Shown here: piece after piece, positions 3,222 through 40,050 of the stretch
Layout of the letters: every line of letters starts with the position of its first letter
Numbering within the stretch: the stretch's first letter is position 1
Source: Escherichia phage vB_Eco_D226
Strand: one strand, 5' to 3'
Length of the DNA: 40,050 bases
Sequence record: MN080711.1
Notes under the pieces: generated by a model
The model's input: the letters and a program-made list of their open reading frames with translations, nothing else
Told to the model about the DNA's origin: nothing
The model's database searches: none
Program-made: the position numbers and the translations under genes

Positions 3222-3279
3222 AACTACCCTCCCATATTTTCAGATTTCACGTAGCGTTACCGTGAGTTGTATTGAAATA

Positions 3280-3312
3280 TCATAAAGACCACTAGATGTA
3301 GTGGCCTTGAGT
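3280..3312 (-). promoter_or_regulatory. RNase III-like processing hairpin (R18.5 position)
   Basis: Inverted repeat aagaccacta/tagtggcctt upstream of gene 18.5, at the position of T7 R18.5. Confidence 0.4.
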
Positions 3313-3319
3313 TATTCCA

Positions 3320-3589
3320 TCAGTTTAGCGTGTACTTCTCATCTTCAGTGAGACCATCAGCACCCACTAGGTTCTGGTACTCTTCGAGTCCATCTGCCAG
3401 TCCACCAAGGATGTTACGGTCTGGCTGTAACTTGGAGACTTGGAACTTGTGGCGCTCTAACAGTTTCCCGATAGCGTTGTACAGTTGAGGTGTGCGCTTG
3501 TCATCATCCTGAAGGTCTTTCAGCATACGTTGAGCCATCTCAGTGTCCAGCATCTCAAGGAATTGAATTAAGGACTTATCGTTAGACAT
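3320..3589 (-). CDS. 18: Terminase small subunit (gp18)
   Basis: 89 aa; ALEMLDTEMAQRML...PQLYNAIGKLL...HKFQ matches T7 gp18. Confidence 0.93.
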   Translation of the reverse strand: MSNDKSLIQFLEMLDTEMAQRMLKDLQDDDKRTPQLYNAIGKLLERHKFQVSKLQPDRNILGGLADGLEEYQNLVGADGLTEDEKYTLN

Positions 3590-12257: not shown

Positions 12258-12863
12258 TCACTTGCCTTGTCCGGTAGACTTAGCATCCGAAGCCTTAACT
12301 TTAGCAGCCGCCTTCTTGCCCATCTTGTTAGTCAGAGGGCTACCAGCAGTTGCCACATCGACCAGCTTCGTTAAGCCTAATCCTAATGGGTCGATGATTT
12401 GTTCCAGCTTGCCTTTCAGACGAGGCTCGGACTTGTTTATTTCATTAATCTGACTTACCGTGTTCTCTCGGTTGGCAATACGCTTCCCTAAGATGACACT
12501 GTAGTCACGTTGGTAGTTCTCAGTGAGACCTTGAGACTCTCGAAGGAAGTCACCCTCGGTCACGCGCTGTACGCGGTCCATAGAGTTACCTTCAAGCATC
12601 CCTTCACCGATTGCCGCACGGATAGTCCCCATGTTTCTCACACGGTTCATATTCGATTGGGTCATCTCCTGTACAGTGGAGTCAATGAGGTCACGAGATT
12701 CTAACTTAAGGTTAGCCTCGTTGTAGTTCATCTCCTTTACCATCTGCCAGCTTTGACGACGACCTTGGTCAATCTGTGCGGCCTTTGCCTGTTCACCCTG
12801 CATACCTCCCATAATCATGGAAGCGCCTTGCATAGCGATAGGGATTGCAGCCATCCAGCACAT
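12258..12863 (-). CDS. 14: Internal virion protein B (gp14)
   Basis: 201 aa; MCW.AAIPIA ... IRAAIGE.MLEG.SMDR..RVTEG matches T7 gp14. Confidence 0.9.
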   Translation of the reverse strand: MCWMAAIPIAMQGASMIMGGMQGEQAKAAQIDQGRRQSWQMVKEMNYNEANLKLESRDLIDSTVQEMTQSNMNRVRNMGTIRAAIGEGMLEGNSMDRVQRVTEGDFLRESQGLTENYQRDYSVILGKRIANRENTVSQINEINKSEPRLKGKLEQIIDPLGLGLTKLVDVATAGSPLTNKMGKKAAAKVKASDAKSTGQGK

Positions 12864-12865
12864 AG

Positions 12866-13279
12866 TTAACCTCCTATTGTGAATAGTTGGAATTGATTAC
12901 TGTCGCCAGTAAACTCATTATGGAACACCGCACCGATGGACTTCAAGAACCTAATGTGGGACTTGTTGCCTATCCAGACATAGTTCCAGATTATTGGATA
13001 CTGTTTTAGCATCGTATCGCGGTACTCTAGAATGAGCTTGCGGAACTCTCTTCTGGTCTTCACACTCAGTTTCCACACACGGGCAGACGTTACGAACCAC
13101 ACTTGGTCTCCACGGTTCCCTCCAATTGCCACAGGCATCCCATGAAGAGACATGGTGACACACTCAGAGGCTGGTGGAAATGAAGGTTCAATGCCATAGG
13201 CTTTTGCCTCAGCGATGTCTTCAGGTGACGGTGTGAATCTCTCGAAGTCTGATTCTTTGGTAGGTCTGATTATTAACAT
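12866..13279 (-). CDS. 13: Internal virion protein A (gp13)
   Basis: 137 aa between phi13 and gene 14; assigned by synteny and size. Confidence 0.75.
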   Translation of the reverse strand: MLIIRPTKESDFERFTPSPEDIAEAKAYGIEPSFPPASECVTMSLHGMPVAIGGNRGDQVWFVTSARVWKLSVKTRREFRKLILEYRDTMLKQYPIIWNYVWIGNKSHIRFLKSIGAVFHNEFTGDSNQFQLFTIGG

Positions 13280-13307
13280 AGAGTTTATCTCCTATAGTAT
13301 AAAACCC

Positions 13308-13330
13308 CTTCCCAATAGTGAGTCGTATTG
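13308..13330 (-). promoter_or_regulatory. Phage RNAP promoter phi13
   Basis: Reverse strand CAATACGACTCACTATTGGGAAG. Confidence 0.8.
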
Positions 13331-13358
13331 TTCACTAAATGAGTCGGGGTGTTTATGA

Positions 13359-15734
13359 TTAGATACCAGAAGAACGACGCAGGTAGTTACCTTCCCAGCC
13401 ACAACCAATCACGTTAAGTGGCGTAGTGTGGTCAGAGGTGATACGGACAATGTTCAACTGCGCGTTGCCCGATACCGGGAACCTGAATTGACCTGTGCCT
13501 AGGTTTAATGCCCCAACTCTAAGAGCATTTGAGCCTAGCCGGGCACCTGCCATATTGTATCTGAACAACCTTGACGTGTTCTCGACCTCAATATCGAATG
13601 CACCAGAGTTCTCATAGTTTAGCCAAGCACGCCGAAGCTGCAATCGGCCTATGTCCTCGGTTGCTGTAGACCCATCGTCAGCGGCCTTCTTGATGAGGAA
13701 TTTAGAGAAGACGTACCGGAAGTTAATATTGAACCCTATGAATATTCTAGCACCCTCCTTGTTCCCATTTAGATACAGTTCAGGACTAACATACCAACCT
13801 TCAGGTGGCTCTTCAAATGTCTCAACCCTACCATCCATCTCAACAATAGAAATGTTTCCCTTCTGGAACCCCATTTTGTACACATCCCACAGATGTACCC
13901 GTGTCTTGTATGTGTCATCATTATAAGCACCAGAAGGTATTACATATTGTGTCTTGTTGTCCAGATAGATACGGTAAGGTTCGTCAGGGAAGTCCACAGA
14001 GTCTTTGGTGAACATAGCCTTAGCCAGCCAGATTTGTGAGGCATTCTCCAGAAGAAGGTACATAATTGACCCGATAGAGTCACATGCTCTAACCTTAACG
14101 TTCTCCCCAAGTTCCCAATGAGACCACGACTGTTGCGCAATCTCTTCGTTGAGGTATAGGAACTTGTATATGAACACCTTGCTCGGAGCGTTAGCAGATA
14201 GAACGGACACGAAGTTCTCAGTACCGGAACCACGAATGGAGAACACACCGTTAGGGATGTAACTCGGAACGTGAGCACTCATGTCCTCCGCAGACTTCAC
14301 GGAGCTAACATCCTGTACCGCATAGTAACGGTTGAGTGACGTATAGGAGGCACGAGGTGACGCAAAGTAAACACCACGCCCAATCCCATAAGGTCTCGCT
14401 CGGTCTGACACATCGAACTCGGTCGTAAGGTTCAACTCTACAGTCTTCGGTGAGAGGATACCGGAAGCAGACAACACGAACTGTGCTTGGTCTGACCATA
14501 GGAGTAACTCTTCAGAGAACGGCACAGCGTACTTCAGCAGTGAGATTCTGTTGTGAGAGACAGCCACGTCAATCGGGTCATCGTCTGATAGGTTAGCTAC
14601 GGAGGCCGGGAACAGGTTGAAATACTTCGAGGTACGGGACATCACAATGTTCTCACCAGCGAGGAAGCCTAAGCGGTTCCTGAAGAAGAACACATCGTTG
14701 ATTGTCTGACCTACCAGTGAAGGGTCGGGGTTAGTATCCATGTCACCACACTTACGGTCTTCCCAAGGTAGAACCTCAAGAGAGAACGAACCGTCTGGTT
14801 TACGAATCAGAGCGTGTGGCATCGAAGCCCTGTTAAGTCCAGACTGCACGTTCCACCCAACTACCTCCTTCCACACCTTACGTTCTGCATCATACTGAAC
14901 ATAGAAGGCATCAGAGGTCTTGGACGTATCACCAACTATCTGTACAGTGTATCCATGCGGAGCCTCAAGTGGTAACTTAGAGAATGACTGTGCCGTGTGT
15001 ACCACAGCGTTCATTAGTTGGTTTCCATACCCGTCCTTAGTCATCACTGTATCTACCTGATTACCTCCAGTGCTCTTAATGTGAATATATCCCTGTCCGA
15101 CTTCGATTGCCCACCCATATTGCGATAGGCTCTCTCTCAGTTTAGTGGCTAACTGTTCAGCAATCCATTGAGCATCGGTCTGGTTCACATGTTCGGGGGT
15201 GCTACCATCCGCAATAGTAAGTGATGCGTGTACACCGCCATTAATGCCAATCTGGAAGGTTCTCCCATACTGACCGCCACGGATGTTAATCAGGCAGTCA
15301 CCCTTGGGGTTCAGGGGGTATACTGGAATTGTGTTCGCAGATACTGTCCAATTCCGGTTAACGATGAACGTATAGTCTGCTACAGTAACCATACGGAGGT
15401 CATCTCGTGGATTTGGAGTACCAACGTAGGTCATATCACCAGTAACTTTATACTCTTTACCATCAAGGTCGAACACGCGGATAGTACCACCAGTGAACAC
15501 CACATAGTAACGCTCACGCTCATCTCGGTTAATCAAGTGAACGAGAGGGTTCGCCCCTAGACCACCAGCATCGCTAAGGGTCTTGATGAATACAAAAGGT
15601 GGCCTCTTCTGGAGACCTTCAGTTTCAGACGACCAGCCGTTAATCTGTTCGGCACCCTGTTCGGGGAACCTTAAGATGTCTGGTTGTTGACTGATACCGC
15701 CTTTCAGGTTCTTGACGGATTGTGAAATAAGAGC
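13359..15734 (-). CDS. 12: Tail tubular protein B (gp12)
   Basis: 791 aa from MALISQSVKNLKGGISQQPDILRF (T7 gp12 begins MALISQSIKNLKGGISQQPDILRY); C-terminus NVIGCGWEGNYLRRSSGI conserved; start trimmed from the ORF track. Confidence 0.95.
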   Translation of the reverse strand, partial: ALISQSVKNLKGGISQQPDILRFPEQGAEQINGWSSETEGLQKRPPFVFIKTLSDAGGLGANPLVHLINRDERERYYVVFTGGTIRVFDLDGKEYKVTGDMTYVGTPNPRDDLRMVTVADYTFIVNRNWTVSANTIPVYPLNPKGDCLINIRGGQYGRTFQIGINGGVHASLTIADGSTPEHVNQTDAQWIAEQLATKLRESLSQYGWAIEVGQGYIHIKSTGGNQVDTVMTKDGYGNQLMNAVVHTAQSFSKLPLEAPHGYTVQIVGDTSKTSDAFYVQYDAERKVWKEVVGWNVQSGLNRASMPHALIRKPDGSFSLEVLPWEDRKCGDMDTNPDPSLVGQTINDVFFFRNRLGFLAGENIVMSRTSKYFNLFPASVANLSDDDPIDVAVSHNRISLLKYAVPFSEELLLWSDQAQFVLSASGILSPKTVELNLTTEFDVSDRARPYGIGRGVYFASPRASYTSLNRYYAVQDVSSVKSAEDMSAHVPSYIPNGVFSIRGSGTENFVSVLSANAPSKVFIYKFLYLNEEIAQQSWSHWELGENVKVRACDSIGSIMYLLLENASQIWLAKAMFTKDSVDFPDEPYRIYLDNKTQYVIPSGAYNDDTYKTRVHLWDVYKMGFQKGNISIVEMDGRVETFEEPPEGWYVSPELYLNGNKEGARIFIGFNINFRYVFSKFLIKKAADDGSTATEDIGRLQLRRAWLNYENSGAFDIEVENTSRLFRYNMAGARLGSNALRVGALNLGTGQFRFPVSGNAQLNIVRITSDHTTPLNVIGCGWEGNYLRRSSGI

Positions 15735-16353: not shown

Positions 16354-16382
16354 AGTTAAATGTCCTCCCATTAGTGAGTTGA

Positions 16383-16426
16383 AAAAAAAAACCCTCAAGC
16401 ACCCGCGAAGGCACCCAAGGGGTTTC
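16383..16426 (-). terminator. Tphi-like terminator for phage RNAP after the capsid gene
   Basis: Transcript reads AACCCCTTGGGTGCCTTCGCGGGTGCTTGAGGG followed by nine U; resembles T7 Tphi. Confidence 0.7.
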
Positions 16427-16435
16427 ATATAGTTA

Positions 16436-17604
16436 TCATTCAGTAGCAGCTAACTCAGCTTCCTTTAGAGCCTTGTTTGCCGCACGGGTACGGGCAGCTT
16501 TCTGTTGTGGCGTTAGCTCTTGCTCAACTTCAGTAAGGGACTCAGTGTCCCCTACTAGTTTGCGAGAAGTTAAGACTTTTTGAAAACCAGCGCACCTACA
16601 GCTTCAGGGCGAAGACCACCGTGACCCATCGCGTACTTAGCGATAATCTGGTCAGCCTGATAGTTAGCACGACGAGCACGTTCCAGAGCCATGTCTTTCA
16701 GCTTCACAGTACCAACGGCAGAGCGGTGACAGAACAGACCGACAACGGTGTCCAGAGCAACCTTAGTGTCACCAGAGGCAGTCGTAGGGAATGCGTGTTT
16801 CTGGTTGGAGGTAGACTCTTCACGGTCATCGCCAGCACCACCAGCAGTCAGGTGAGGAACTTCGATTACTTCAAAGCCCATGACGTTGCGGATAGAACCA
16901 GTAGACGGGTCAATCAGTGCCTGATAGTTAGCAGCGTTAGGCATCAGAGCAGCCAGAATCGCGGAGTAGTTATCAGGAGTGGTGTAGAAGGTACGGTCAG
17001 CAGACGGAACATAGTTCTTAGTCAGACGAGCACGAGCCAGAGTCAACTGTGCAATAATTGCCTGACCCAGCTTCACTTGGTCGCCTTGCAGGTTTTTGGC
17101 TTCGCCAACTTCCAGAACACTTGCAGTACCCAAGCCAGCGATGTTCTCGTTGCTCGCAGACGGCAGGTTACACAGTTTAGCCATTTCAGCCAGAACCGCG
17201 CCATCAGCAGCCAGAGCCAGAGACTCACCCAACTGTGCAGTGTACTCAGAACGCACGTCATAGTGGTTCATAGCGTCTTCGATGTCGTAAATCAGAACGT
17301 CAGCAGTCAGCAAACCATCAATGTTAATGGTCTTCTCAGTGTGCTTCATGTCTTTACGTTTGTCATCTAGGTTCTCACCCGGTTGTAGATAAGCAGCTTT
17401 GGTACGACCCAGCACAGGGAACTGCGCGGACTTACCGGACTGAATAGAACGCACGAGGTGTTTGTTCATAGTTACGGAAGTACGAGTAAACGCGGTCAGA
17501 ACTTCACCACCGAATACTTTCAGGAACAGAGCCAGTTTATCACCTGCGCTCATGCCTTTACCTTGGTCTTTACCAATCTGCTGTCCACCAGTCATGTTAC
17601 CCAT
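16436..17604 (-). CDS. 10B: Minor capsid protein 10B, made by -1 ribosomal frameshift near the end of 10A
   Basis: The -1 frame starting within CTG GTT TTC AAA (about 16582) reads [48 protein letters not shown]; the [22 protein letters not shown] tail matches the T7 10B C-terminus. Confidence 0.6.
16570..17604 (-). CDS. 10A: Major capsid protein 10A
   Basis: 344 aa; [17 protein letters not shown]... (T7 tag region MASMTGGQQMG) and similarity throughout. Confidence 0.97.
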   Translation of the reverse strand: MGNMTGGQQIGKDQGKGMSAGDKLALFLKVFGGEVLTAFTRTSVTMNKHLVRSIQSGKSAQFPVLGRTKAAYLQPGENLDDKRKDMKHTEKTINIDGLLTADVLIYDIEDAMNHYDVRSEYTAQLGESLALAADGAVLAEMAKLCNLPSASNENIAGLGTASVLEVGEAKNLQGDQVKLGQAIIAQLTLARARLTKNYVPSADRTFYTTPDNYSAILAALMPNAANYQALIDPSTGSIRNVMGFEVIEVPHLTAGGAGDDREESTSNQKHAFPTTASGDTKVALDTVVGLFCHRSAVGTVKLKDMALERARRANYQADQIIAKYAMGHGGLRPEAVGALVFKKS

Positions 17605-17803: not shown

Positions 17804-18715
17804 TTAGAACTGACTGTACATCATCTTGCGCTCAACTTCCGCACGGAACTTACTGTCGTGACGGTAGCGAGGGTCGGACATTGCAGCAATCATCTCAGCC
17901 TGTGACTCAAAGCCAGACTGTTTGGCACGTACAGGTGCAGCAGGTACAGCGCGTTTAGAGATACTACGGGCAGCAGGTTTACCGAAAGTCTTCGCACGGC
18001 TTGCACCAGCGAGATTGACGATAGCCTTCACTGTAGCGATGTCACGATTTTCCAGAGCACTAATCAGAGACTCGGCAGCATCAGGGTTTGATACTTCGAG
18101 GTGACTATAGATTGCTTGGAACTGTGCTTCACCACCAGCGAACTGCATGACAGACTTAACGTACTGGTCTACCAGAGCTTCCTGACCACGGATGTAGGAG
18201 TCAACGAACGACTTAGAGTAGCCAGCTTTTGCTAGTTCTTCATAAGACTGTTCTGACAGGCCATCTTCACCGTATTCCTGTTGGATTCGGACAATGGTGT
18301 CTTCTGACAGACCTCGTTCAGCCGCCTGATTAACCATCTCTTCGAAGCCAGCTTCATGCTCTTCGAGTTGACTTGAGGCTTCATTCAGTTCAGCCGGAAT
18401 GTCACCCACAGGTTCGAAACCTTCAGCGCCTTCTTCGTTGCCCTCGGAGTAGTCGATTTCCTCAACGGACTCTTCAGGTTCACCGTCAGTGCTGATGCGG
18501 ATTTCAGTACGGTCTTCTTCGCCTTCCTCACCGAAAGGGTCTGGATTACCATACGGGTCATCATTGTGCGCTAACTCGATTGCATCATCGCCATCACGGG
18601 CAGCGACATCGAGTTCAAGCATAGCCTGTTCGTGGTCAGTAGGAGTGGACCCACCGACGACCGCAGAGTTCACACCGAAAGATGCGTATACATCAGCGTT
18701 AGATTCACCAGCCAT
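17804..18715 (-). CDS. 9: Capsid assembly scaffold protein (gp9)
   Basis: 303 aa from MAGESNADVYASFGVNSAV; acidic protein matching T7 gp9 at both ends. Confidence 0.93.
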   Translation of the reverse strand: MAGESNADVYASFGVNSAVVGGSTPTDHEQAMLELDVAARDGDDAIELAHNDDPYGNPDPFGEEGEEDRTEIRISTDGEPEESVEEIDYSEGNEEGAEGFEPVGDIPAELNEASSQLEEHEAGFEEMVNQAAERGLSEDTIVRIQQEYGEDGLSEQSYEELAKAGYSKSFVDSYIRGQEALVDQYVKSVMQFAGGEAQFQAIYSHLEVSNPDAAESLISALENRDIATVKAIVNLAGASRAKTFGKPAARSISKRAVPAAPVRAKQSGFESQAEMIAAMSDPRYRHDSKFRAEVERKMMYSQF

Positions 18716-18767
18716 AATTGTAATCTCCTTCAATTAAAGTTTGAACTCAAAGGGAGGACGTAGTGTC

Positions 18768-21319: not shown

Positions 21320-21367
21320 TAATATTCTCCTTAAAGTTAAACTTAAAGTAGGTATCATATAGGCACC

Positions 21368-21390
21368 CCTCTCAATAGTGAGTCGTATTG
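21368..21390 (-). promoter_or_regulatory. Phage RNAP promoter phi6.5
   Basis: Reverse strand CAATACGACTCACTATTGAGAGG. Confidence 0.8.
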
Positions 21391-21418
21391 ATTTCACTGT
21401 CGAGAAGAATGCCTAGAG

Positions 21419-21505
21419 TTACACACTCTTAGCTATAAATGCAGCCCACACCATAGCGAAGGCTACGATTGCGAACACTACGAACGCAACTGTTCCGGCG
21501 ACCAT
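21419..21505 (-). CDS. Small hydrophobic peptide at the gene 6.3 position (28 aa)
   Basis: Manual translation MVAGTVAFVVFAIVAFAMVWAAFIAKSV; GGAGA 8 nt upstream; between gene 6 and phi6.5 as in T7. Confidence 0.35.
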   Translation of the reverse strand: MVAGTVAFVVFAIVAFAMVWAAFIAKSV

Positions 21506-25053: not shown

Positions 25054-25455
25054 TTAACGATGGGTGTATCCCATATAGTCTTTCACGTTGATTACCTTCA
25101 GGTTCTCAGCTTTTATTCCAACGTTGTTGCTGGTCACTAAGGTTCCATTAGGAGCAATGCGGGACACTCGTGAGCACCAGCAGATGTTGCCAGCGACCGT
25201 GCGCACGTACCATAGAGAGGATGTCTCAGTTGATGTGCAGAAGTCACCAGCCTTAATGTGGGTCATAGTGTCCTTATCGAATACCTTCAGGTCAGGACGG
25301 TTCACTGGTTGCACCCACTTGCCATACTTGCGGGTCCACCCTAAGTTCTTCAGGATGTGTACCGCCGAGTCACGAGCACATTCATACTCTTTGACATCAG
25401 CCAGTTCAGCTTGCAGCTTAGAGATTTCAGCTTCGATTACATTACGATTACGCAT
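25054..25455 (-). CDS. Hypothetical protein at the gene 4.7 position
   Basis: 133 aa ORF immediately upstream of gene 5; T7 gene 4.7 (135 aa) occupies this position. Function unknown. Confidence 0.7.
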   Translation of the reverse strand: MRNRNVIEAEISKLQAELADVKEYECARDSAVHILKNLGWTRKYGKWVQPVNRPDLKVFDKDTMTHIKAGDFCTSTETSSLWYVRTVAGNICWCSRVSRIAPNGTLVTSNNVGIKAENLKVINVKDYMGYTHR

Positions 25456-25463
25456 AGTGTTGT

Positions 25464-25486
25464 TCTCCCATTAGTGAGTTGAATAG
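25464..25486 (-). promoter_or_regulatory. Degenerate phage promoter-like element (phi4.7 position)
   Basis: Reverse strand CTATTCAACTCACTAATGGGAGA: the downstream half matches the consensus, the upstream half is divergent (A at -11). Confidence 0.35.
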
Positions 25487-25494
25487 ATTTCATA

Positions 25495-25545
25495 CAAAAG
25501 TTAATCACGAAGGCCATCATTAAGATGACCTTTAGTTTAACTCTT
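25495..25545 (-). promoter_or_regulatory. RNase III-like processing hairpin (R4.7 position)
   Basis: Transcript forms aaggucauc/gauggccuu stem with a G.U pair; flanks are shared with the other hairpins in the family. Confidence 0.45.
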
Positions 25546-25846
25546 ACGCTTCAGCTTTTGCAGCCAGACTGATAGCTTCTTCGCCAGTCACCTTGGACAG
25601 TAGAAGTTCGCGGGTCTTGTCTTCACCTACAGCCACAGTAGCAGCTACAGCAACGGAGGCCAGCAGACGACCTGCCTGTGTGTCATCCAAAGTTACACGC
25701 TGTGTGTGCGCCTTGGTGGACTTGTGGTCCTTCCAACGGTAGACCAGAGTGACCTTGCCATTACGGACATTGATGTGCACTCGACGAGCATACTGGTCGA
25801 TGGTGTCAGACAGACGGATTGTGTTGCCGGGGAATTTAATAGCCAT
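25544..25846 (-). CDS. Hypothetical protein at the gene 4.5 position
   Basis: 100 aa ORF between genes 4.3 and 4.7; assigned by synteny only. Confidence 0.65.
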   Translation of the reverse strand: MAIKFPGNTIRLSDTIDQYARRVHINVRNGKVTLVYRWKDHKSTKAHTQRVTLDDTQAGRLLASVAVAATVAVGEDKTRELLLSKVTGEEAISLAAKAEA

Positions 25847-25859
25847 GATGTGTCACTCC

Positions 25860-26072
25860 TTACAGGAAGAATTTGTTGAGGTCGGTTGCTTTAGCTGCAA
25901 TCTTAGCAGCAGACGTTACGCCAGCGCTTGCATCTTCAGACAGCAGACGAGCCTGTTTAGCCAAGCGTTGAGCCTGTTCAGCGTCCTTACGTGCCTTGTC
26001 GTTCAGACGTTTAGCTTCACGGAAGTACATTTTAACTAACAGCTTACCGAGAGTGTTGATGAATTTAAACAT
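25860..26072 (-). CDS. 4.3: gp4.3
   Basis: 70 aa; MFK.I..LG.LLV.MY..EAKRLND.ARK.A matches T7 gp4.3. Confidence 0.85.
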   Translation of the reverse strand: MFKFINTLGKLLVKMYFREAKRLNDKARKDAEQAQRLAKQARLLSEDASAGVTSAAKIAAKATDLNKFFL

Positions 26073-28058: not shown

Positions 28059-28142
28059 TCACCGGAAGTGCTTCACCAAATAGCTTACGCATAGTGATTA
28101 CTCCTTATACAATTTTAGCGAACAAAGGGAGAAACCTTTCGG

Positions 28143-28165
28143 CTCTCCCATAGTGAGTTCTATTA
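28143..28165 (-). promoter_or_regulatory. Phage RNAP promoter (phi3.8/4c position)
   Basis: Reverse strand TAATAGAACTCACTATGGGAGAG. Confidence 0.6.
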
Positions 28166-28256
28166 CTTACGAGTTAAGATATAGGTCAATGCCAGAACGA
28201 ATACACAGTGGTAAATCATATCGTACATGCCCATCTCATGAATAATCATCATAATC

Positions 28257-31005: not shown

Positions 31006-31466
31006 ATGTGATTTCGAACATCCACTGCTTCCTCAAGTGTCCCGTATGTTCCATGAGACTTACCATTGATTCTCACAATAAAGTGTCCAGTTCTTTTGCA
31101 GGTGTGGATGTGGCGCGTTCCAGATTTGGACTGCTTTGGTACATTTCTGTTATACCCATTCTGGCTACGAGTTACCAACCGAAGATTCTCTATCCTATTA
31201 TTGGAAGGGTTTCTATCTATATGGTCTATCTCAAGCCCATCAGGTATTGCTCCAAAGTTTAGAATCCACACCAGCCTGTGTACCTGTATGTTCTTCTTCT
31301 CATGTTGCGTAGACCAGTACCCATCTTTTCTTAGAGTACCGCAGGGCTTTCCAGAACGCGAAAAGACCAACCCCGAAGGGCTGGCCTGATTGTATTTATA
31401 TTTTCTCGCATGGATTGCTTTCTGTTCCACGGAACATTTCGAAGGAAGGGTGACGCAACGAGCCAT
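30999..31466 (-). CDS. HNH homing endonuclease (HNH_3-type with C-terminal AP2-like DNA-binding region), 155 aa
   Basis: Motif EIDHIDRNPSNNRIENLRLVTRSQN; GGAGG 6 nt upstream of ATG; the 5' end overlaps the last ~70 nt of the ligase gene. Confidence 0.85.
   Translation of the reverse strand: MARCVTLPSKCSVEQKAIHARKYKYNQASPSGLVFSRSGKPCGTLRKDGYWSTQHEKKNIQVHRLVWILNFGAIPDGLEIDHIDRNPSNNRIENLRLVTRSQNGYNRNVPKQSKSGTRHIHTCKRTGHFIVRINGKSHGTYGTLEEAVDVRNHIY
31357..31384 (-). terminator. Intrinsic terminator-like hairpin just after the ligase stop (TE position), inside the HNH coding sequence
   Basis: Transcript CCAGCCC-UUCG-GGGUUGG followed by UCUUUUCG; T7 carries the early host-RNAP terminator TE immediately after gene 1.3. 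Confidence 0.45.
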
Positions 31467-32421: not shown

Positions 32422-32460
32422 GATGGAACTCCTTTAGTGTGTCGGTTAATAAGTAATCAA

Positions 32461-32506
32461 AAGTTAATCACAAAGGCCATCATTAAGATGACCTTTAGTT
32501 TAACTC
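32461..32506 (-). promoter_or_regulatory. RNase III-like processing hairpin (R1.3 position)
   Basis: 47-bp element nearly identical (1 mismatch) to the hairpin at 25495-25545. Confidence 0.45.
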
Positions 32507-32529
32507 TTTCGCAATAGTGAGTCGTATTA
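32507..32529 (-). promoter_or_regulatory. Phage RNAP promoter phi1.3
   Basis: Reverse strand TAATACGACTCACTATTGCGAAA. Confidence 0.75.
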
Positions 32530-32799
32530 CTTCCAGTGCTTCAGGTCACTGTGTACCTTACGAAGCCATTCAGTCTGTGCATTGCAGCGAACGTCTTCAT
32601 CGTCCTGTTCGAAACACTTGGAGGTTAACACTAATCCATTCCGCAAGACCACTCGAAGAGTCTCACCGGATACCCAGCGCATCCTCGCATAGTTCTCATA
32701 GCGGAAAGTCTCAACGACCACACTCACATCGTGGTCTTCTTTGAGTCGTTCGATAGCGTCTTTGTATGCTATTAAGTTACCACTGTATAAGCGACCCAT
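32527..32799 (-). CDS. 1.2: gp1.2 (host dGTPase inhibitor homologue)
   Basis: 90 aa; MGRLYSGNL.A.K.A and DEDV..N..T.WL.......LK.WK match T7 gp1.2. Confidence 0.9.
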   Translation of the reverse strand: MGRLYSGNLIAYKDAIERLKEDHDVSVVVETFRYENYARMRWVSGETLRVVLRNGLVLTSKCFEQDDEDVRCNAQTEWLRKVHSDLKHWK

Positions 32800-32948: not shown

Positions 32949-32984
32949 AGTGTTGTTTCCTTCTGTGTATGTATAGTTTGTTGA

Positions 32985-33032
32985 CAGTTAATCATGAAGG
33001 CCATCAGAAGTGATGACCTTGAGTTTAACTTT
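32985..33032 (-). promoter_or_regulatory. RNase III-like processing hairpin (R1.1 position)
   Basis: Same flank-stem-flank architecture (gttaatcatgaaggccatc...gatgaccttgagtttaac) as the other family members. Confidence 0.45.
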
Positions 33033-33037
33033 CAGTG

Positions 33038-33060
33038 TTTCCCATTAGTGAGTCGTATTG
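33038..33060 (-). promoter_or_regulatory. Phage RNAP promoter phi1.1B
   Basis: Reverse strand CAATACGACTCACTAATGGGAAA. Confidence 0.75.
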
Positions 33061-33602
33061 TCTGCAACCTTACGTGCAATCTCAATGCGACCCGCTACGT
33101 CTTTCTTATAATAGGTGAACTCTTTGCGCTCACCGTCAGTGCACGTCTGTGTCAGCAGATAGCGGTCGTCTTGTTCCACCCAATGTAGGCAAGTGACTTG
33201 CTTACCACATGAGCCAAGACCCAGCTTGAACTCAGTGCGCTTCCATCCAGCATCCGGGATGTGAGCAGTAAACTTGATAGACGTGATGTCACTGTGAGTG
33301 TACTCACGGATGGTACTCTTTGCCTCTTTAAGTTCCTTGCGGTACTCCACTGCCTCAGCGCGTAGACGCTCAATGAGTTCTCGTTGGTTCGACATGTCAT
33401 ATTGTTGCTCGAACTCTAAGGTACGGATTCGACCAGCTAGTTCCTGCTTCTCTCGCCACCCATCTTCAAGTCTCTCTTTGAGTGCATGAGAGTTCTTCTC
33501 TTCTTTGATTAGCTTAGTGAGAAATACCTTTGAACGATTATAATATGTTGCTGCAAGAATGGTTGATACGAGAGCGCCTACTGAAGTGATTAAAGTAAAC
33601 AT
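33045..33602 (-). CDS. Hypothetical membrane-anchored coiled-coil protein (185 aa), no T7 counterpart
   Basis: N-terminal hydrophobic segment MFTLITSVGALVSTILAATYY, then a ~70-aa charged heptad-like region, then a C-terminal domain with three Cys; AAGAGGAAACA RBS 7 nt upstream; sits between phi1.1A and phi1.1B where T7 has only non-coding origin sequence. Confidence 0.8.
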   Translation of the reverse strand: MFTLITSVGALVSTILAATYYNRSKVFLTKLIKEEKNSHALKERLEDGWREKQELAGRIRTLEFEQQYDMSNQRELIERLRAEAVEYRKELKEAKSTIREYTHSDITSIKFTAHIPDAGWKRTEFKLGLGSCGKQVTCLHWVEQDDRYLLTQTCTDGERKEFTYYKKDVAGRIEIARKVADNTTH

Positions 33603-33661
33603 GATTGTGTTTCCTCTTAAAGTTAGAACTTAAAGTATCTTAAAGTTTAGGAAGCCCGAAG

Positions 33662-33691: not shown

Positions 33692-36343
33692 TTAGGCAAA
33701 CGCAAAGTCTGACTTAAGGATTTCTTGCAGGTCCAGAGAACCTTTAGCTGGCATCTCAGGCATCTGGTCAAGCTGCGATTCGTGTAACTGGTCAGCAAAT
33801 TGCTCATAGAAGTCTGCGAGTACATCGTTTTCTTCATAGGTGTTCACCATCGTTTCACGCACTGCTTTAAACAGGTTGCCAGCATCAGCAGGGATAGTAC
33901 CAAAGGAGTCGTGAATCAGTGCGAACGATTCCACACCGTAGACCTCATTGGAGCGGACCACAGTCATGCGCAGGTGGCTTCCATCCATTGAGTGAACAAA
34001 GTTAGGTGCGATACCTGACTCCTGCTTACGTGCATCAATGCCGCTATCCTTGTTGGTGTTCACGGTAGGCTGTAGACGAATCTGGCCTAAGAACATCAGG
34101 TTCAAGCGGGTCTGTACTGGCTTCTTGTATTCCTGCCAGACCGGGAAGCCATCAGGAGTAACCCAATGTACCGCACAGCGCTTACGGAGAACCTCTTTGG
34201 TCTTCTTGTCCTTGACTTCAGCAGCCAGAAGTTTAGCGGCAGACTTCAACCAGTTCATCGCTTCAACCGCTGCGACAACTGTGACCGTTACAGCGTTCCA
34301 AATCAGTTTAGCCATGTAGCCAGCCGCTTGGTTCGGTTGAGTGAACATCAAGCCCTTGCCATCGTCGATAGCTGGCTGAATGATGTCCTCAAGAACTTGG
34401 TCGCGGAAGCCATACTCTTTGGAGCCGTAAGCCAACGTCATGACCGAACGCTTAGTGACCTTGCGAGTCACACCGTAGGCCAGCCACTGACCAGCTAACT
34501 CTTTCGTTCCCAGCTTGAGCTTCTCAGTGATTTCACCAGTGTCCTTGTTTGTCACGGTTTCCACTTCGTTATCAGTGCCATTGATTACCGCTTCGCGGAG
34601 CATCTCGTTCACACGTTCGGCAACGATGCGATAGATGTCTTGTACTTCCTTGCTTGGCAGCAGGTTAACCGCACGCCCACCGACTTCATCGCGGAGCATT
34701 GCAGAGAAGTGCTGAATACCAGAGCAAGAGCCATCGAACGCCAGCGGCAGAGAGCAGTTGTAGTGCATACCGTGGTGTTGCACACCTGCATACTCAAAGC
34801 AGAATGCTAGGAAGCAGAACGGAGAATCTTGTTCAGCCCACCAAGTGTTAGCAATCGGGTCAGCAGCAACGCTCATGATGTTCTCGTGGTTGTCATCAAT
34901 GAACTTGATGCGTTCTGCAAAGTCCACCTTGTCCACGCCAGCAGTGTTAGCACCGTGAATCTTCAGCCAGTAGTACCCATCGACACCAATCGGTTTACCC
35001 TTAGCCAAGGTCAGCAGCCCTTTGGTCATGTCGTTGCCTTGCGGGTTAAACATTGGGACTGCATACACACGACCGCGCCAGTCCATGTTCATTGGGAACC
35101 AGATAGCTTTGAACTGTGCGAACTTATTGGCCTGACCTAACATGAACTCCATGCTCATGCGGCGTGACACTCGTGCCTTCTCTTTGCGATAGATTGCGGA
35201 GGCCGCTTTCTTCCACGCTTTCAGAGCCGCTTCGTTCGTGTCGATGTCTTCAGGTTTGACCGGGAGTTCCCCACGTTCGAGAGCAGGTACATCGTCAACC
35301 GGGCAATGCTTCCAGTTCACAATCTCGTTGACCACTGCCAGAACCTTCTTGTTAATCTTCCAAGGTGTATTCTGTGCTATGTTCACCGCCTTGTAAACTT
35401 CAGGCATGTGCACGTCGTTGTAACGCTCTAATCCCTTCTTGCTACCAGTGCGAACCAGAGAGAGAGGCTTGCGTCCAGCAGCCCAATAGCCACCACCTAC
35501 CGGAGAAGTCCAAGGCTTCGGAGGGACTACACAAGGTTGGTACATCGGAGCGATTGCAGCCAGTGCACCAGCACGTTTAGACAGCAGGTCTACATATTGT
35601 TCTGTTAACTGGATGTACTCACCATCCTTCTCAACGTTACCAGCAAACGGTCGGTGTAACTCAACGAGACCAGTAGACCCGATGAGCAGTTCCAACATGC
35701 GCACACCAACGTGAATTGATTCTTCAGGTGTCCATGTAGTCCACTTGGTTTGCAGTTGACCAGCGTCTAACATCTTGCCTTCTACAGCTTGCATGAATGC
35801 TTTCTTGTAGACGATACCAACGCGCTTGTTCAGTGCCTCCTGTACGTGGTTCTTAAAGTGCTTCGCTTCTTCGTCACGGATGCGACCAAAACGCAATTCA
35901 TCCTCAATACTGCGACCAATCTTAGTGGCGACCGATTGCAGGTTGGTGAACTCTTCTTTCGTCAAGCAAGCGAGTGTGACCTTCAGTGTGATGAAAGCAG
36001 CCGCTTCAGGTGCAACCTTCTGTACCAGATTGTAGGCTACTGGACGCTTGCCACGCTTCGCTTCCACCTCGGTGAACCAAGCGTTCCACGCCTCGATAAA
36101 CTTCGGTGCGAGAGATGACAGGAGCGGTTTAGCCACTGCGTTATCACCGAACTCACCCGCTTTGATTTGACGTTCCATTGCCTTAAGAAAACGCTTCTCA
36201 CCCTCAGTGTGCGCTTCGTGCTCAAGCTGTAACTGCGTAGCTGCAAGCTGTGCACCGTAATGGTCAGCCAGAATGTTGTATGGCATGATTGCGTTAGCGA
36301 TGTCAGAGAAGTCGTTCTTTGGTGCGTTGATTACGTTAGTCAT
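33692..36343 (-). CDS. 1: DNA-directed RNA polymerase, single-subunit (gene 1)
   Basis: 883 aa, same length as T7 RNAP; catalytic and finger motifs conserved (NMDWRGRVYAV, FCFLAFCFEY, PLAFDGSCSGIQHFSAML, RSVTKRSVMTLAYGS, FALIHDSFGT); specificity loop QPTVNTNKDSGIDARKQ keeps the T7-type Asn. Confidence 0.98.
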   Translation of the reverse strand: MTNVINAPKNDFSDIANAIMPYNILADHYGAQLAATQLQLEHEAHTEGEKRFLKAMERQIKAGEFGDNAVAKPLLSSLAPKFIEAWNAWFTEVEAKRGKRPVAYNLVQKVAPEAAAFITLKVTLACLTKEEFTNLQSVATKIGRSIEDELRFGRIRDEEAKHFKNHVQEALNKRVGIVYKKAFMQAVEGKMLDAGQLQTKWTTWTPEESIHVGVRMLELLIGSTGLVELHRPFAGNVEKDGEYIQLTEQYVDLLSKRAGALAAIAPMYQPCVVPPKPWTSPVGGGYWAAGRKPLSLVRTGSKKGLERYNDVHMPEVYKAVNIAQNTPWKINKKVLAVVNEIVNWKHCPVDDVPALERGELPVKPEDIDTNEAALKAWKKAASAIYRKEKARVSRRMSMEFMLGQANKFAQFKAIWFPMNMDWRGRVYAVPMFNPQGNDMTKGLLTLAKGKPIGVDGYYWLKIHGANTAGVDKVDFAERIKFIDDNHENIMSVAADPIANTWWAEQDSPFCFLAFCFEYAGVQHHGMHYNCSLPLAFDGSCSGIQHFSAMLRDEVGGRAVNLLPSKEVQDIYRIVAERVNEMLREAVINGTDNEVETVTNKDTGEITEKLKLGTKELAGQWLAYGVTRKVTKRSVMTLAYGSKEYGFRDQVLEDIIQPAIDDGKGLMFTQPNQAAGYMAKLIWNAVTVTVVAAVEAMNWLKSAAKLLAAEVKDKKTKEVLRKRCAVHWVTPDGFPVWQEYKKPVQTRLNLMFLGQIRLQPTVNTNKDSGIDARKQESGIAPNFVHSMDGSHLRMTVVRSNEVYGVESFALIHDSFGTIPADAGNLFKAVRETMVNTYEENDVLADFYEQFADQLHESQLDQMPEMPAKGSLDLQEILKSDFAFA

Positions 36344-36364
36344 TGTTGCCTCACGTTGTTAAGA

Positions 36365-36405
36365 AAGTTTATCTATGAAGGCCAGCAGTCAGTGCCGACC
36401 TTGAA
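36365..36405 (-). promoter_or_regulatory. RNase III-like processing hairpin (R1 position)
   Basis: Inverted repeat gaaggccagcag...gccgaccttg between 0.7 and gene 1. Confidence 0.4.
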
Positions 36406-36416
36406 GATACACCTTA

Positions 36417-37523
36417 TCAGCCTTGCAGTTGTGCGTCAAGTAACTTGTCGATTGGAAGTGAGCGGCATTGCATAAGAGCCATGCGTTCTGCCTGTTTCCA
36501 CTCAAATGCTTTCACCTTGTCAATCATGATTACGTCTGCATTGTTGTTGTGTAACCACATGTTGTGCCAGTTGTGCGCACCCATCCAATCTTGCGCCCTC
36601 ATAGCGTCCCTTAGTTCCTGCTTTTGTTCACGTCTACGCTGTACAAAGTGCTGTGCAACCTCGGCACCACGTTTGGCACGCAGCTTACGATTGCGCTTGC
36701 GGCGTTTCATTGCGGCCTTGCGGTTAACCTGAAAGGTTCCGTTATGGTCACGCTTGGCCTTGCGGTTGCGACAACGTTCAATGATGCGCTCGTTAGCTAT
36801 CGCCTCGACCTCGGCAATCAGTGCTTCAGGGTCCAGAGGGAAACCATCCTCACGTTCACGGTCATGTGAGAAACTAACCGGGTCAGTGATGTACGGAACA
36901 TTGTTATCGTCGAACATAATGTTCCCGCTGTGCATGTCGAAAGATGCAATGCCTTGGAAGAACTCGCGAATCATCTTGCAAGTCTCGATGAACTCCATGC
37001 TAACATGTTGTGCATACCAATCGGCATCACCTCCAGTGCACTCAATGAACTCCTGCGCAGCACTTGCATATTTTGCATGAGTGCCGTTAGCGTATCGGTC
37101 GCAACTGTTCAAATGGTCCAATACAACCGTGTAGCAACCTGCGTGACGTGCTACGTGATAGACGTTAGGGATACCCGCTCGGCCTTGGTGCATCCTACAG
37201 AACGCAGTGTACGCAGCGCCTGAATCCTCTTTCTTAAAGCCAACCTTGATGACTCGACCCGGTAACATTTCGTGCGAGTAGGCCGCGCTGAAGTGACCAT
37301 TACCCAACATGCGGAATCCTGCATCAAGCATGAGGCCTCGCAAGGTGTGCCACCAGTCCTGATATTCAAGACCCTGTGAGCCGTCTGTGTCGTTACCATC
37401 ACATGTTTCACCGTTCACGATGTCAGCAGCTAGTTCGACCAAAAGAGGCTGGCGCTTGTCCAGTTCGCTAATCGGGAGAGACTTGATGATTGCCAGACGT
37501 GCCTGAATGTCGGTGTAGTTCAT
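36417..37523 (-). CDS. 0.7: Ser/Thr protein kinase and host shut-off protein (gp0.7)
   Basis: 368 aa; GFKMLGNGHFSAAYSH, RVIKVGFKKEDSGAAYTAFCRM, GIPNVY, GIASFDMHSGNIMF...VPYITDPVSFS match T7 gp0.7. Confidence 0.95.
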   Translation of the reverse strand: MNYTDIQARLAIIKSLPISELDKRQPLLVELAADIVNGETCDGNDTDGSQGLEYQDWWHTLRGLMLDAGFRMLGNGHFSAAYSHEMLPGRVIKVGFKKEDSGAAYTAFCRMHQGRAGIPNVYHVARHAGCYTVVLDHLNSCDRYANGTHAKYASAAQEFIECTGGDADWYAQHVSMEFIETCKMIREFFQGIASFDMHSGNIMFDDNNVPYITDPVSFSHDREREDGFPLDPEALIAEVEAIANERIIERCRNRKAKRDHNGTFQVNRKAAMKRRKRNRKLRAKRGAEVAQHFVQRRREQKQELRDAMRAQDWMGAHNWHNMWLHNNNADVIMIDKVKAFEWKQAERMALMQCRSLPIDKLLDAQLQG

Positions 37524-37977: not shown

Positions 37978-38178
37978 TCAGTCATTCCAGCCTGCACATG
38001 TTGCTTGGTGTATCACGCAGGCTTGGTATTCTTCCTGCGCCAAAACCTCGTTCACCCAATGCGTGACTTGTTTACCGTATCGTACAACGTAGGTTCTTCC
38101 CATTGCCCCGTGATCATACTCTCGCAGTGTTACAGTGCATTGACCTTTGATTTTAGATGTTGCCAGAAGTTTACTCAT
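37978..38178 (-). CDS. Small hypothetical early protein (66 aa)
   Basis: Start MSKLLATSKIKGQ with AGGA upstream; first ORF after the SAM lyase gene. Confidence 0.5.
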   Translation of the reverse strand: MSKLLATSKIKGQCTVTLREYDHGAMGRTYVVRYGKQVTHWVNEVLAQEEYQACVIHQATCAGWND

Positions 38179-38204
38179 GGTGTTAGTCCTATTGCATGTT
38201 AAAG

Positions 38205-38250
38205 TGATAATCATGAAAGGCCACTCATATTGAGCGACCTTGAGTTTATC
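38205..38250 (-). promoter_or_regulatory. RNase III-like processing hairpin (R0.5 position)
   Basis: Transcript aaggucgcuca/ugaguggccuu, an 11-bp stem with G.U pairs; conserved flanks gtgataatcat...ccttgagtttatcac. Confidence 0.45.
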
Positions 38251-38252
38251 AC

Positions 38253-38711
38253 TTACTGTACTTGCCAGCGGCGACCGAACTCATCAATGGTGAAGCAGCC
38301 TTTCAGTGCCTCGGTGCGTGGGACTTCTTGGAAGCTACCGTGCAGACGTTCAGCTTTATAACCATCAATGCCTTTAGCGTACACTAAGCCAGCCGTGTGA
38401 GTCTGTGACTTATAGACCAGTACACAATCTTGCTCGAACTCATTACACGCCAGACGTGCGACCGCTATTGCTTGAGCTTTGTTAGCACAGCGTACACGAA
38501 CAGTCAGTTCCTCAGTTGGTGCACTTGCGATAGCCTCCCGATAACAACCAGTCAAATCTGTAGACTCAACGCTACCGTATTCAAGCGGTGCATTACGCAG
38601 TGAGTTAACCATGTGACGATGACGACTCATATTGACTTCATCGCAGAGGTTAGAGCGGAACGCTGATACCAGTACATAGAATACGTTTGCAGGTTCGTTA
38701 GTGTAAATCAT
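38253..38711 (-). CDS. 0.3: S-adenosyl-L-methionine lyase (T3-type SAMase, anti-restriction), gene 0.3
   Basis: 152 aa; EPANVFYVLVSAFRSNLCDEVNMSRHRHMV...SVESTDLTGCYREAI...CVLVYKSQTHTAGLVYAKGIDGYKAERL.GSFQEVP...GCFTIDEFGRRWQVQ matches T3 gp0.3 as recalled, not T7 Ocr. Confidence 0.9.
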   Translation of the reverse strand: MIYTNEPANVFYVLVSAFRSNLCDEVNMSRHRHMVNSLRNAPLEYGSVESTDLTGCYREAIASAPTEELTVRVRCANKAQAIAVARLACNEFEQDCVLVYKSQTHTAGLVYAKGIDGYKAERLHGSFQEVPRTEALKGCFTIDEFGRRWQVQ

Positions 38712-38724
38712 GATAGTGCCTCAT

Positions 38725-38790
38725 TATGTGTTAGTGATTATCATTAAAGAGCACACGTTGTTACTTAATGTATGCCCTTGAGTTAATCGC
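38725..38790 (-). promoter_or_regulatory. RNase III-like hairpin candidate upstream of gene 0.3 (R0.3 position)
   Basis: Shares flanks gtgattatcat...ccttgagttaatc with the hairpin family; the stem is less regular. Confidence 0.3.
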
Positions 38791-38959
38791 TATCGGCGTT
38801 ATCACTGTTTAAACGCTTGTGCGTTCACGTCATCCCGTAGTTCTTGACTACCTGTCTCGCAGTAGGGAATTACACGACCATATTGTTAAAGAACTTTAAG
38901 TGCAGGTTTCGTTAGCACCGAGTCACTTTCAGTGTGTGACCTCACAAGAACGTTATATA

Positions 38960-39109: not shown

Positions 39110-39150
39110 GCATGTCGTACATCTTACATCTTATCGTTACTGCTTGTCAA
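39110..39150 (-). promoter_or_regulatory. Host sigma70-type early promoter (A2-like)
   Basis: Reverse strand TTGACA, 18-nt spacer, TAAGAT. Confidence 0.5.
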
Positions 39151-39204
39151 CTACTTTTGTTTCTCACCGTGACACCTCATGTTGTTTCAGAGGGCGACCA
39201 GTTG

Positions 39205-39245
39205 TTGACGACTGCTATACTACGTTATTGCTTTCGTTGAGTCAA
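39205..39245 (-). promoter_or_regulatory. Host sigma70-type early promoter (A1-like)
   Basis: Reverse strand TTGACT, 17-nt spacer, TAGTAT. Confidence 0.4.
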
Positions 39246-39457
39246 CCACTTTCGTATGTCTGGTTGATGACTACTTGAGACACTTCAGCTTTACTAGATA
39301 ACTCGCGGTCTTGTCTAGTAGTTGGTAGCGTTGTGTCTCTCAACGGTCGCTATAGTCTCATAGCTGTTTCTTAGAGTCAATACTTAAAGTAACAAATAAT
39401 CGTCTTTAAGTGTCTTTAAGTTATCCCTATAAGGAATGGGAATAGTAATAGACACTC

Positions 39458-39935: not shown

Positions 39936-40050
39936 ACTACGTGAGAGACCCTAAGAGACCCTGTAGACCATAGAGGGTACATAAGGGTTTACTCTTAGAG
40001 TTGACTTCTTACAGTGATAATAGGGAAGATGTATATCGACCATTATCACT
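39936..40050. repeat. Direct terminal repeat, copy at phage left end (identical to 1-115)
   Basis: Exact 115-bp identity with window positions 1-115. Confidence 0.9.

Follow-up and report, generated by a model that had tools for sequence, protein, structure and literature searches.

The hairpins scattered between the genes of Escherichia phage vB_Eco_D226 (sequence record MN080711.1) are, in all likelihood, RNase III processing signals of a T7-like phage (Berlinvirus): two-tier hairpins within long polycistronic RNAs of the − strand that, by analogy with T7, would be nicked by host RNase III. Judged by position, sequence, architecture and covariation, they are members of the processing signals of the T7 group (Studiervirinae). 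They are thus new instances of a long-known kind, orthologues of the textbook signals of T7 and T3.

The window, by which we mean the whole stretch of 40,050 bases that was analysed, is the whole genome of a T7-like phage (Berlinvirus), running in the opposite direction to the usual T7 map. Bases 1-115 recur as a perfect direct repeat of 115 nt at 39936-40050, the terminal redundancy, and the unique part of the genome amounts to 39,935 bases, plus the 115-nt repeat. In a comparison of 10 kb, the closest records all belong to Berlinvirus (vB_SEqdws-315, 96%; 285P, 95%; BA14, 93%). Fifteen T7-type promoters, reverse-complemented and reading …CCCAATAGTGAGTCGTATTA, are scattered over the genome. 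As the long ORFs all lie on the − strand, this strand is the transcript sense. The conserved flanks that a sequence-only reading of the window had quoted from the + strand are therefore the reverse complement of the RNA motif, which runs ACUCAAGG, stem, CCUUnAUGAUUAAC.

Architecture and membership of the hairpin family

The sequence-only reading had proposed seven elements with common flanks and a variable stem whose transcript pairs with G.U wobbles. All seven are present where it had placed them, with extents now refined on the − strand (Table 1). In transcript sense they consist of a lower-stem arm, ACUCAAGG, a variable stem and loop, CCUUnAUGAU and the other lower-stem arm. All of them fold stably on the − strand (z-scores from -3.6 to -6.6 against dinucleotide shuffles), the lower stem having 8-9 bp and being separated by a small asymmetric internal loop from an upper stem of 9-10 bp; the folding check that had been called for thus came out in favour of a stem on the transcribed strand, and the wobbles were also found, at one to six G.U pairs per member. 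The sense fold is more stable than the antisense fold in 7/8 members, R0.3 being the exception.

Table 1. Hairpin elements and associated features of the window. Cuts are predictions by homology to T7 R1.1; scores are those of the covariance model described in the text.
Feature	Position	Strand	Model score	Fold	Predicted cut	Context
R0.3-position hairpin	38732..38792	−	48.7 bits	z -3.6	38743/38742	upstream of gene 0.3 homologue; long apical loop (13 nt)
R0.5-position hairpin	38202..38254	−	55.3 bits	-23.4 kcal/mol, z -6.6	38213/38212	directly after gene 0.3 stop codon
R1-position hairpin	36363..36415	−	45.7 bits	z -4.4	36375/36374, ±1 nt	between gene 0.7 kinase and gene 1 RNA polymerase
R1.1-position hairpin	32982..33033	−	59.7 bits	z -5.0	32994/32993	directly downstream of promoter phi1.1 (33034-33062), upstream of gene 1.1
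R1.3-position hairpin (repeat copy B)	32458..32508	−	59.1 bits	-22.1 kcal/mol, z -6.1	32470/32469	downstream of promoter phi1.3 (32503-32531), upstream of ligase gene
R4.7-position hairpin (repeat copy A)	25495..25545	−	58.5 bits	-19.4 kcal/mol, z -4.1	25507/25506	overlaps gene 4.5 stop codon; just upstream of variant promoter phi4.7 (25460-25488)
R6.5-position hairpin	21345..21428	−		z -5.0	21357/21356	colinear with annotated T3 R6.5; promoter phi6.5 (21364-21392) inside apical loop
R18.5-position hairpin	3270..3321	−	47.1 bits	z -4.3	3282/3281	overlaps gene 18 stop codon; upstream of gene 18.5 (Rz-like spanin)
R3.8-like simple hairpin, candidate	28127..28149	−		z -2.9		by position only; at +1 of promoter upstream of gene 4
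R13-like stem-loop, candidate	13299..13356	−		-20.7 kcal/mol, z -5.0		overlaps promoter phi13 (13304-13332)
Gene 0.7 protein kinase	36417..37523	−				phrog_2828 serine-threonine kinase, E 5.5e-180
Leader repeat (family D8), four copies	18732-18754, 21328-21350, 33615-33637, 39369-39391	−				just downstream of phage promoters

Two genome-wide statistics set the family apart from background. The motif AAGGN{12,30}YCTTN{3,4}GAT covers all seven elements and has 9 matches where 1.06 are expected, a count that none of 100 shuffles reached. With its filters switched off, a covariance model trained only on the seven elements of this genome gives them 45-60 bits (E 1e-7 to 1e-10), compared with 13 bits for the next match on the − strand of the genome. 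An Rfam scan of the whole genome on both strands gave no match at gathering score among 4227 families.

The same architecture is found well beyond this genome. Folded individually, all 74 full-length homologous sites from 14 genomes (74/74) are two-tier hairpins, with upper stems of 8-11 bp, lower stems of 7-10 bp, a 5' loop that is mostly ACUC or ACUA, and a 3' loop that is mostly UAUGA, CAUGA or YGUGA. We aligned 75 homologous sites from the genome studied, T7, T3 and 11 Berlinvirus loci. Standard pairs are formed by 96% of the upper-stem cells, as opposed to 86.1±0.8% in column shuffles, and compensatory double changes occur in 53 upper-stem cells, as opposed to 18.3±4.4 in shuffles (0/500 reach 53), counts that somewhat favour the structure of the model, to which the alignment was fitted. 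Sliding the 3' partner by 1-3 columns makes pairing fall to 23-60%. The AAGG/CCUU pairs at the base of the upper stem vary hardly or not at all, while the distal half varies freely with compensation. Because the variable length of the 3' loop shifts the alignment register, the lower stem was assessed in the individual folds, where the homologous sites have 24 distinct arm pairs; orthologous lower stems at R18.5, for example, differ in a compensatory way (GGAAUA/UAUUUC versus GGUAAU/AUUAUC).

The seven elements do not exhaust the set. A sliding MFE scan over the transcribed strand of the whole genome returned 148 windows at or below -17 kcal/mol, mostly within genes; as this is too unspecific for finding sites, the regions syntenic with T3 R3.8, R6.5 and R13 were inspected instead. 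Each contains a hairpin that the sequence-only reading had missed, so that its list is correct in all seven members, but incomplete. The R6.5-position hairpin has the flanks UAACUCUAGGCA...UGCCUAUAUGAUA and aligns colinearly with T3 R6.5 (17135-17206), which also encloses phi6.5, and with T7 region 18502-18575. The 93-nt stretch 21340-21432 that contains it folds at -35.4 kcal/mol (z -5.0) with the layout of lower stem, loop and upper stem, and the covariance model missed it because of its large apical loop. Formation of the hairpin is confined to transcripts that started at promoters further upstream and read through this one.

The other two are candidates outside the two-tier family. The R3.8-like hairpin, GGGAGAGCC-GAAA-GGUUUCUCCC, lies directly after TAATAGAACTCACTAT; T3 annotates a comparable stem-loop of 27 nt, R3.8, right after phi3.8, and position weakly suggests that the two are counterparts. 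The R13-like stem-loop overlaps phi13 just as T3 R13 (25443-25480) does, and R13 is a weak site in T7 (bioRxiv 10.1101/106799). If both candidates are counted, none of the ten T7/T3 sites would be without a counterpart in this genome.

Counterparts in T7, T3 and other Berlinviruses

The T7 records NC_001604 and V01146 are without RNase III features, and the T3 record NC_003298 was therefore chosen as the annotated benchmark. It labels stem-loops as 'RNase III recognition site' at R0.3, R0.5, R1, R1.1, R1.3, R3.8, R4.7, R6.5, R13 and R18.5. In the 16 kb of T3 that were searched, the covariance model recovered 5/7 annotated sites nearly to the base, with no off-target at E <= 0.05. The matches at 823-875, 1358-1410, 6003-6054, 6527-6557 and 12970-13019 correspond to R0.3 (39.4 bits), R0.5 (52.1 bits), R1.1 (49.0 bits), R1.3 and R4.7 (53.6 bits), respectively. 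T3 R1.3 differs from its counterpart here in being truncated, with only model positions 14-44 matched, and T3 R1 and R3.8 were missed within the same 16 kb.

In T7, the model matches 853-901, 1428-1480, 5848-5899, 6407-6454, 13854-13904, 18502-18575 and 36817-36867, regions that we take to contain the cleavage sites R0.3, R0.5, R1.1, R1.3, R4.7, R6.5 and R18.5 of Dunn & Studier (1983). The better scores are those of R1.1 (48.6 bits), R0.5 (48.4 bits), R4.7 (43.6 bits), R18.5 (41.8 bits) and R6.5 (39.2 bits); T7 R1.3 (21.7 bits) and T7 R1 (14 bits) score weakly. These weak scores, together with the missed T3 sites R1 and R3.8, speak for a heterogeneous family. Orthologous matches were also found in 11 Berlinvirus loci.

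Gene order leads to the same assignments. Homologues of the genes that flank the hairpins were identified for 0.3, 0.7 (kinase), 1 (RNA polymerase), 1.2, 1.3 (ligase), 4.5, 4.7, 18 and 18.5. The gene 0.3 homologue matches a PHROG named 'SAM-dependent methyltransferase' and is annotated as SAM hydrolase in relatives; genes 4.5 and 4.7, on either side of R4.7, also match PHROGs. From these flanking genes, the seven elements occupy the junctions R0.3, R0.5, R1, R1.1, R1.3, R4.7 and R18.5. The order of promoters and hairpins is that of T3 as well, with phi1.1 before R1.1, phi1.3 before R1.3, and R4.7 before phi4.7. Annotated T3 R4.7 likewise overlaps the end of gene 4.5, the arrangement at R1.1 equals the annotated phi1.1/R1.1 of T3, and T3 annotates R18.5 at the same place (35038-35088). 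The earlier claim that the positions match T7 RNase III sites is thus borne out by homology to annotated T3 sites, matches to T7 regions, synteny and stem covariation. Five of the sites fall within the early region, between host-type promoters near 39120-39250 and a terminator-like hairpin at 31355-31410, in agreement with the five sites at which the T7 early precursor is cut (PMC4858673).

Conservation differs between positions. The R0.3 hairpin is homologous to annotated T3 R0.3 and identical to elements in phages 315 and P483. The R0.5 hairpin matches annotated T3 R0.5 (1359-1408) and T7 region 1428-1480, and is limited to some Berlinviruses, being found in 315 and P483, but not in BA14 and 285P. 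The R1 hairpin is nearly invariant over the Berlinviruses examined. Kluyvera phage Kvp1 lacks the R4.7 hairpin together with genes 4.3 and 4.5 and has an HNH endonuclease gene there (about 12690-13150), an arrangement indicating that an RNase III site can be lost along with its flanking genes.

The likeness to the T7 signals extends to the sequence itself. T7 R1.1, which reads ACUCAAGGUCAUUCGCAAGAGUGGCCUUUAUGAUUGAC, has the same transcript motif, visible in the R1.1 sequence ACTCAAGGTCATTCGCAAGAGTGGCCTTTATGATTGAC, and the R1.1-position hairpin matches this T7 sequence. Also shared are the two-tier hairpin with asymmetric internal loop, the intercistronic positions, the adjacency to promoters and the gp0.7 kinase. 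The differences are that this phage belongs to another genus, that its apical sequences and lower stems have diverged, and that T7 R1.3 is unlike T7 R4.7, whereas R1.3 and R4.7 of Berlinviruses have one sequence frame. In addition, about 11 nt from the predicted cut the pairs are C-G/U-A here and U-A/U.G in the distal box of T7 R1.1. With T3, the arrangement of R6.5, R13 and R18.5 relative to promoters and gene ends is shared, but the promoter consensus is another. Other bacterial RNase III substrates (the stems of the 30S rRNA precursor, the lambda N leader, sib) have in common with the hairpins that RNase III binds about two turns of double-stranded RNA and that internal loops or bulges modulate single- versus double-strand cleavage (PMC1540722). 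They are unrelated in sequence, however, and are regulatory hairpins or long-range duplexes, whereas the elements studied here make up a dispersed intercistronic family with common flanks.

None of the relatives' GenBank records inspected (BA14, 285P, Yepe2, Kvp1, PP74, 315 and others) annotates RNase III sites, a literature search found neither such sites nor transcript-end or cleavage data for BA14, Kvp1, Yepe2 and other Berlinviruses, and RNase III is absent from the text of the Kvp1 genome paper. Nor does Rfam have a family for these hairpins. The discovery value of the present assignments is small. Their practical use lies in annotation, since a covariance model of this sort could mark sites across the T7 group.

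Predicted processing

T7 R1.1 is the standard RNase III model substrate. We take its cut to be CCUUUAU^GAU, at coordinate 5887 of Dunn & Studier (1983), which is consistent with products of 47 and 13 nt. These are the products reported for R1.1 RNA, which is cut once (PMC4858673). RNase III recognises about two duplex turns, internal loops restrict cutting to one phosphodiester, and the leftover 3' hairpin protects the upstream RNA from 3'-5' exonucleases (PMC1540722).

From T7 and T3 we infer cleavage in this phage, the exact cut positions and the consequences. Early and late transcription of the − strand would yield long polycistronic RNAs that contain the hairpins, each as a roughly 20-bp two-tier hairpin with ACUC on the 5' side and UAUGA on the 3' side of the internal loop. 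Host RNase III would bind the hairpin and, by analogy with T7 R1.1, nick it a single time in the 3' half of the internal loop (CCUUnAU^GAU). This would leave the upstream mRNA with a protective hairpin at its 3' end, and the downstream one would begin a few nucleotides ahead of its ribosome-binding site. At R1.3, a second cut on the 5' arm is possible. The gene 0.7 product may bear on this step: besides its kinase match (Table 1), gene 0.7 matches phrog_15752, described as 'positively regulates RNaseIII', and the T7 gp0.7 kinase phosphorylates and stimulates host RNase III, speeding product release (PMC4858673).

It is very improbable that the hairpins serve mainly as 3' stabilisers or as translational regulators of the downstream gene, independently of RNase III. 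A role in translation would be compatible with the conservation of the 3' flank and with the ribosome-binding sites that follow closely downstream, and T7 processing matters for the translation of some mRNAs (PMC4858673). However, the conserved features are those of an RNase III substrate (about 20 bp, two coaxial stems, a conserved internal loop), the sequence identity with T7 R1.1 argues in the same direction, and stabilisation by a 3' hairpin itself needs the cut. Hardly any credence can be given to the idea that these stable intergenic stem-loops on the transcribed strand are intrinsic terminators or pause sites, since no U-tract follows any element, the terminator scan flagged none of them, terminator-like hairpins with U-runs are found elsewhere (31355-31410 and 16383-16438), and R1.1, R1.3 and R6.5 lie directly downstream of or around a phage promoter, which termination would defeat.

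The two terminator-like hairpins just mentioned, GC-rich and also on the − strand, are distinct from the RNase III hairpin family. By position, the first (after the ligase gene) corresponds to the early terminator TE, and the second (after the capsid gene) to Tphi. A further observation concerns the mechanically called ORF after R0.5 (37978-38214, − strand), whose start AUG lies inside the 3' loop of the hairpin (CAUGAUUAUC). As the PHROG match of this ORF begins at residue 13, translation probably starts at the AUG near 38178, which has AGGA before it.

The near-identical R1.3 and R4.7 hairpins

The hairpins at R1.3 and R4.7 are identical at 50/51 positions (repeat D10), with the one mismatch at 25509/32472. 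The single-base difference that the sequence-only reading had described is therefore real, and so is the repeat, although it is slightly longer than the 47 bp given there: extended to 25549/32512, the copies agree at 53/55 positions. Their identity ends at borders, namely the gene 4.5 stop codon versus the start of phi1.3, and phi4.7 versus the gene 1.3 leader.

Much of this similarity is shared by relatives. In 12 genomes, R1.3 and R4.7 have the common frame AAGAGUUAAACUAAAGGUCAUC…GGCCUU(U/C)GUGAUUAACUUUUG, within which the apex varies; the differing base is U in R1.3 in 12/12 genomes and C in R4.7 in 10/12. On this comparison, the near-identity of the two sites is mainly a genus-wide feature, largely inherited. 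The differing base affects the fold. The U at 32472 in R1.3 almost closes the internal loop, giving a near-continuous 22-bp duplex, while the C at 25509 in R4.7 keeps the loop open, at a less favourable free energy (Table 1). The modelled folds predict different cleavage patterns at R1.3 and R4.7 from this one-base loop difference. The pair is a natural one-nucleotide contrast of closed versus open loop in otherwise identical hairpins, and would lend itself to a test of how the geometry of the loop determines single- versus double-strand cleavage by RNase III.

What sets the present genome apart is the apex, which is identical in both copies (CAUCUUAAUGAUGG) and has an A where nearly all relatives have G. 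At R1.3, phage 315 is the only other one of 50,697 phage records with this G-to-A state (GAUGG); at R4.7, neither these records nor IMG/VR have a further instance. The IMG/VR scans returned no contig with the apex of this genome and 9 loci with the shared frame, mostly from the same isolates.

The sequence-only reading had suggested recent duplication or gene conversion as the origin of the pair. Intragenomic conversion of a short tract, with 14-36 nt of exact flanks as homology and selection keeping the loop-closing base different, is plausible, but we consider it somewhat less than probable. It would account for the G-to-A change common to both copies. Phage P1338 has the complementary pattern, with GGUGG at both sites and a difference only at the T/C position. 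Edit distances between R1.3 and R4.7 are, moreover, smaller within than between genomes (sum 50 versus 57.8±3.0, P=0.005), in a sample of 12 related genomes that are not independent. On the other hand, the signal in the present genome is a single transition, and R1.1 of this genome and of 315 has the G-to-A change as well, in a differing apex, so that parallel selection explains the pattern equally well. In addition, 315, 285P, BSP161, BA14 and P483 have clearly different apices at R1.3 and R4.7.

Inter-phage recombination confounds the history further. The segment comprising gene 4.5, R4.7 and gene 4.7 (25250-25900) is a mosaic patch, with best matches to SWJM-03, P151 and DS_BP2 (90-94%); phage 315 is not among its 25 best matches, whereas elsewhere in the 10-kb region the identity to 315 is 96%. 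A scenario in which R4.7 underwent conversion once the lineage had separated from phage 315 was dropped, since the 4.5-4.7 segment is mosaic and not 315-like. The extra identity of the apices may be due to short-tract gene conversion, to mosaic recombination between phages combined with a parallel G-to-A change, or to both.

Recent duplication of a 50-55-bp segment can be practically dismissed, since high identity alone favours it, and orthologous hairpins are present at both positions in T3, T7 and those of the examined Berlinviruses that possess genes 4.5 and 4.7, the copies cease to be identical precisely at functional borders, and the shared frame is genus-wide, not particular to this genome. 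A reading of the hairpins as mobile repeats was rejected on the grounds given against these and the other rival explanations.

The change in the upper stem might matter for function. About 11 nt 5' of the predicted cut, R1.1 (33003), R1.3 (32480) and R4.7 (25517) all have A, forming a U-A pair; most relatives and T7 R1.1 have G there, forming a U.G wobble in the region of the distal box, and phage 315 has A in R1.1 and R1.3 only. In a minimal R1.1 substrate, substitutions in the distal box weakened binding (PMC1540722), and by analogy U-A in place of U.G could alter reactivity.

Mildly new are the genus-wide twin frame of R1.3 and R4.7 with its single loop-switching base, and the hint of concerted evolution. 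Tentatively, and with more doubt than confidence, we suggest that Berlinvirus hairpins evolve in concert, R1.1, R1.3 and R4.7 being homogenised by conversion or by parallel selection tied to host RNase III. One loop base would be kept as U in R1.3, which would be cut on both strands with excision of the hairpin, and as C in R4.7, where a single nick would leave a protective 3' hairpin.

Some further observations concern the promoters and leaders around the hairpins. Three phage promoters on the − strand deviate from the consensus TAATACGACTCACTATTGGGA. Two of them, phi4.7 beside the R4.7 hairpin and the promoter after the capsid terminator (16360-16388), read TTCAACTCACTAATGGGAG; the third, ahead of gene 4 (about 28150-28172), reads TAATAGAACTCACTATGGGAGA and was left ungrouped by the repeat finder. 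All three may differ in timing or be weaker. A leader repeat, TACTTTAAGTT(T/C)TAACTTTAAG(G)A, lies a short way downstream of four phage promoters and resembles UUAACUUUA, the translational enhancer 'epsilon' in the leader of T7 gene 10. Of its copies, the one at 21328-21350 shares bases with the 3' arm of the lower stem of R6.5.
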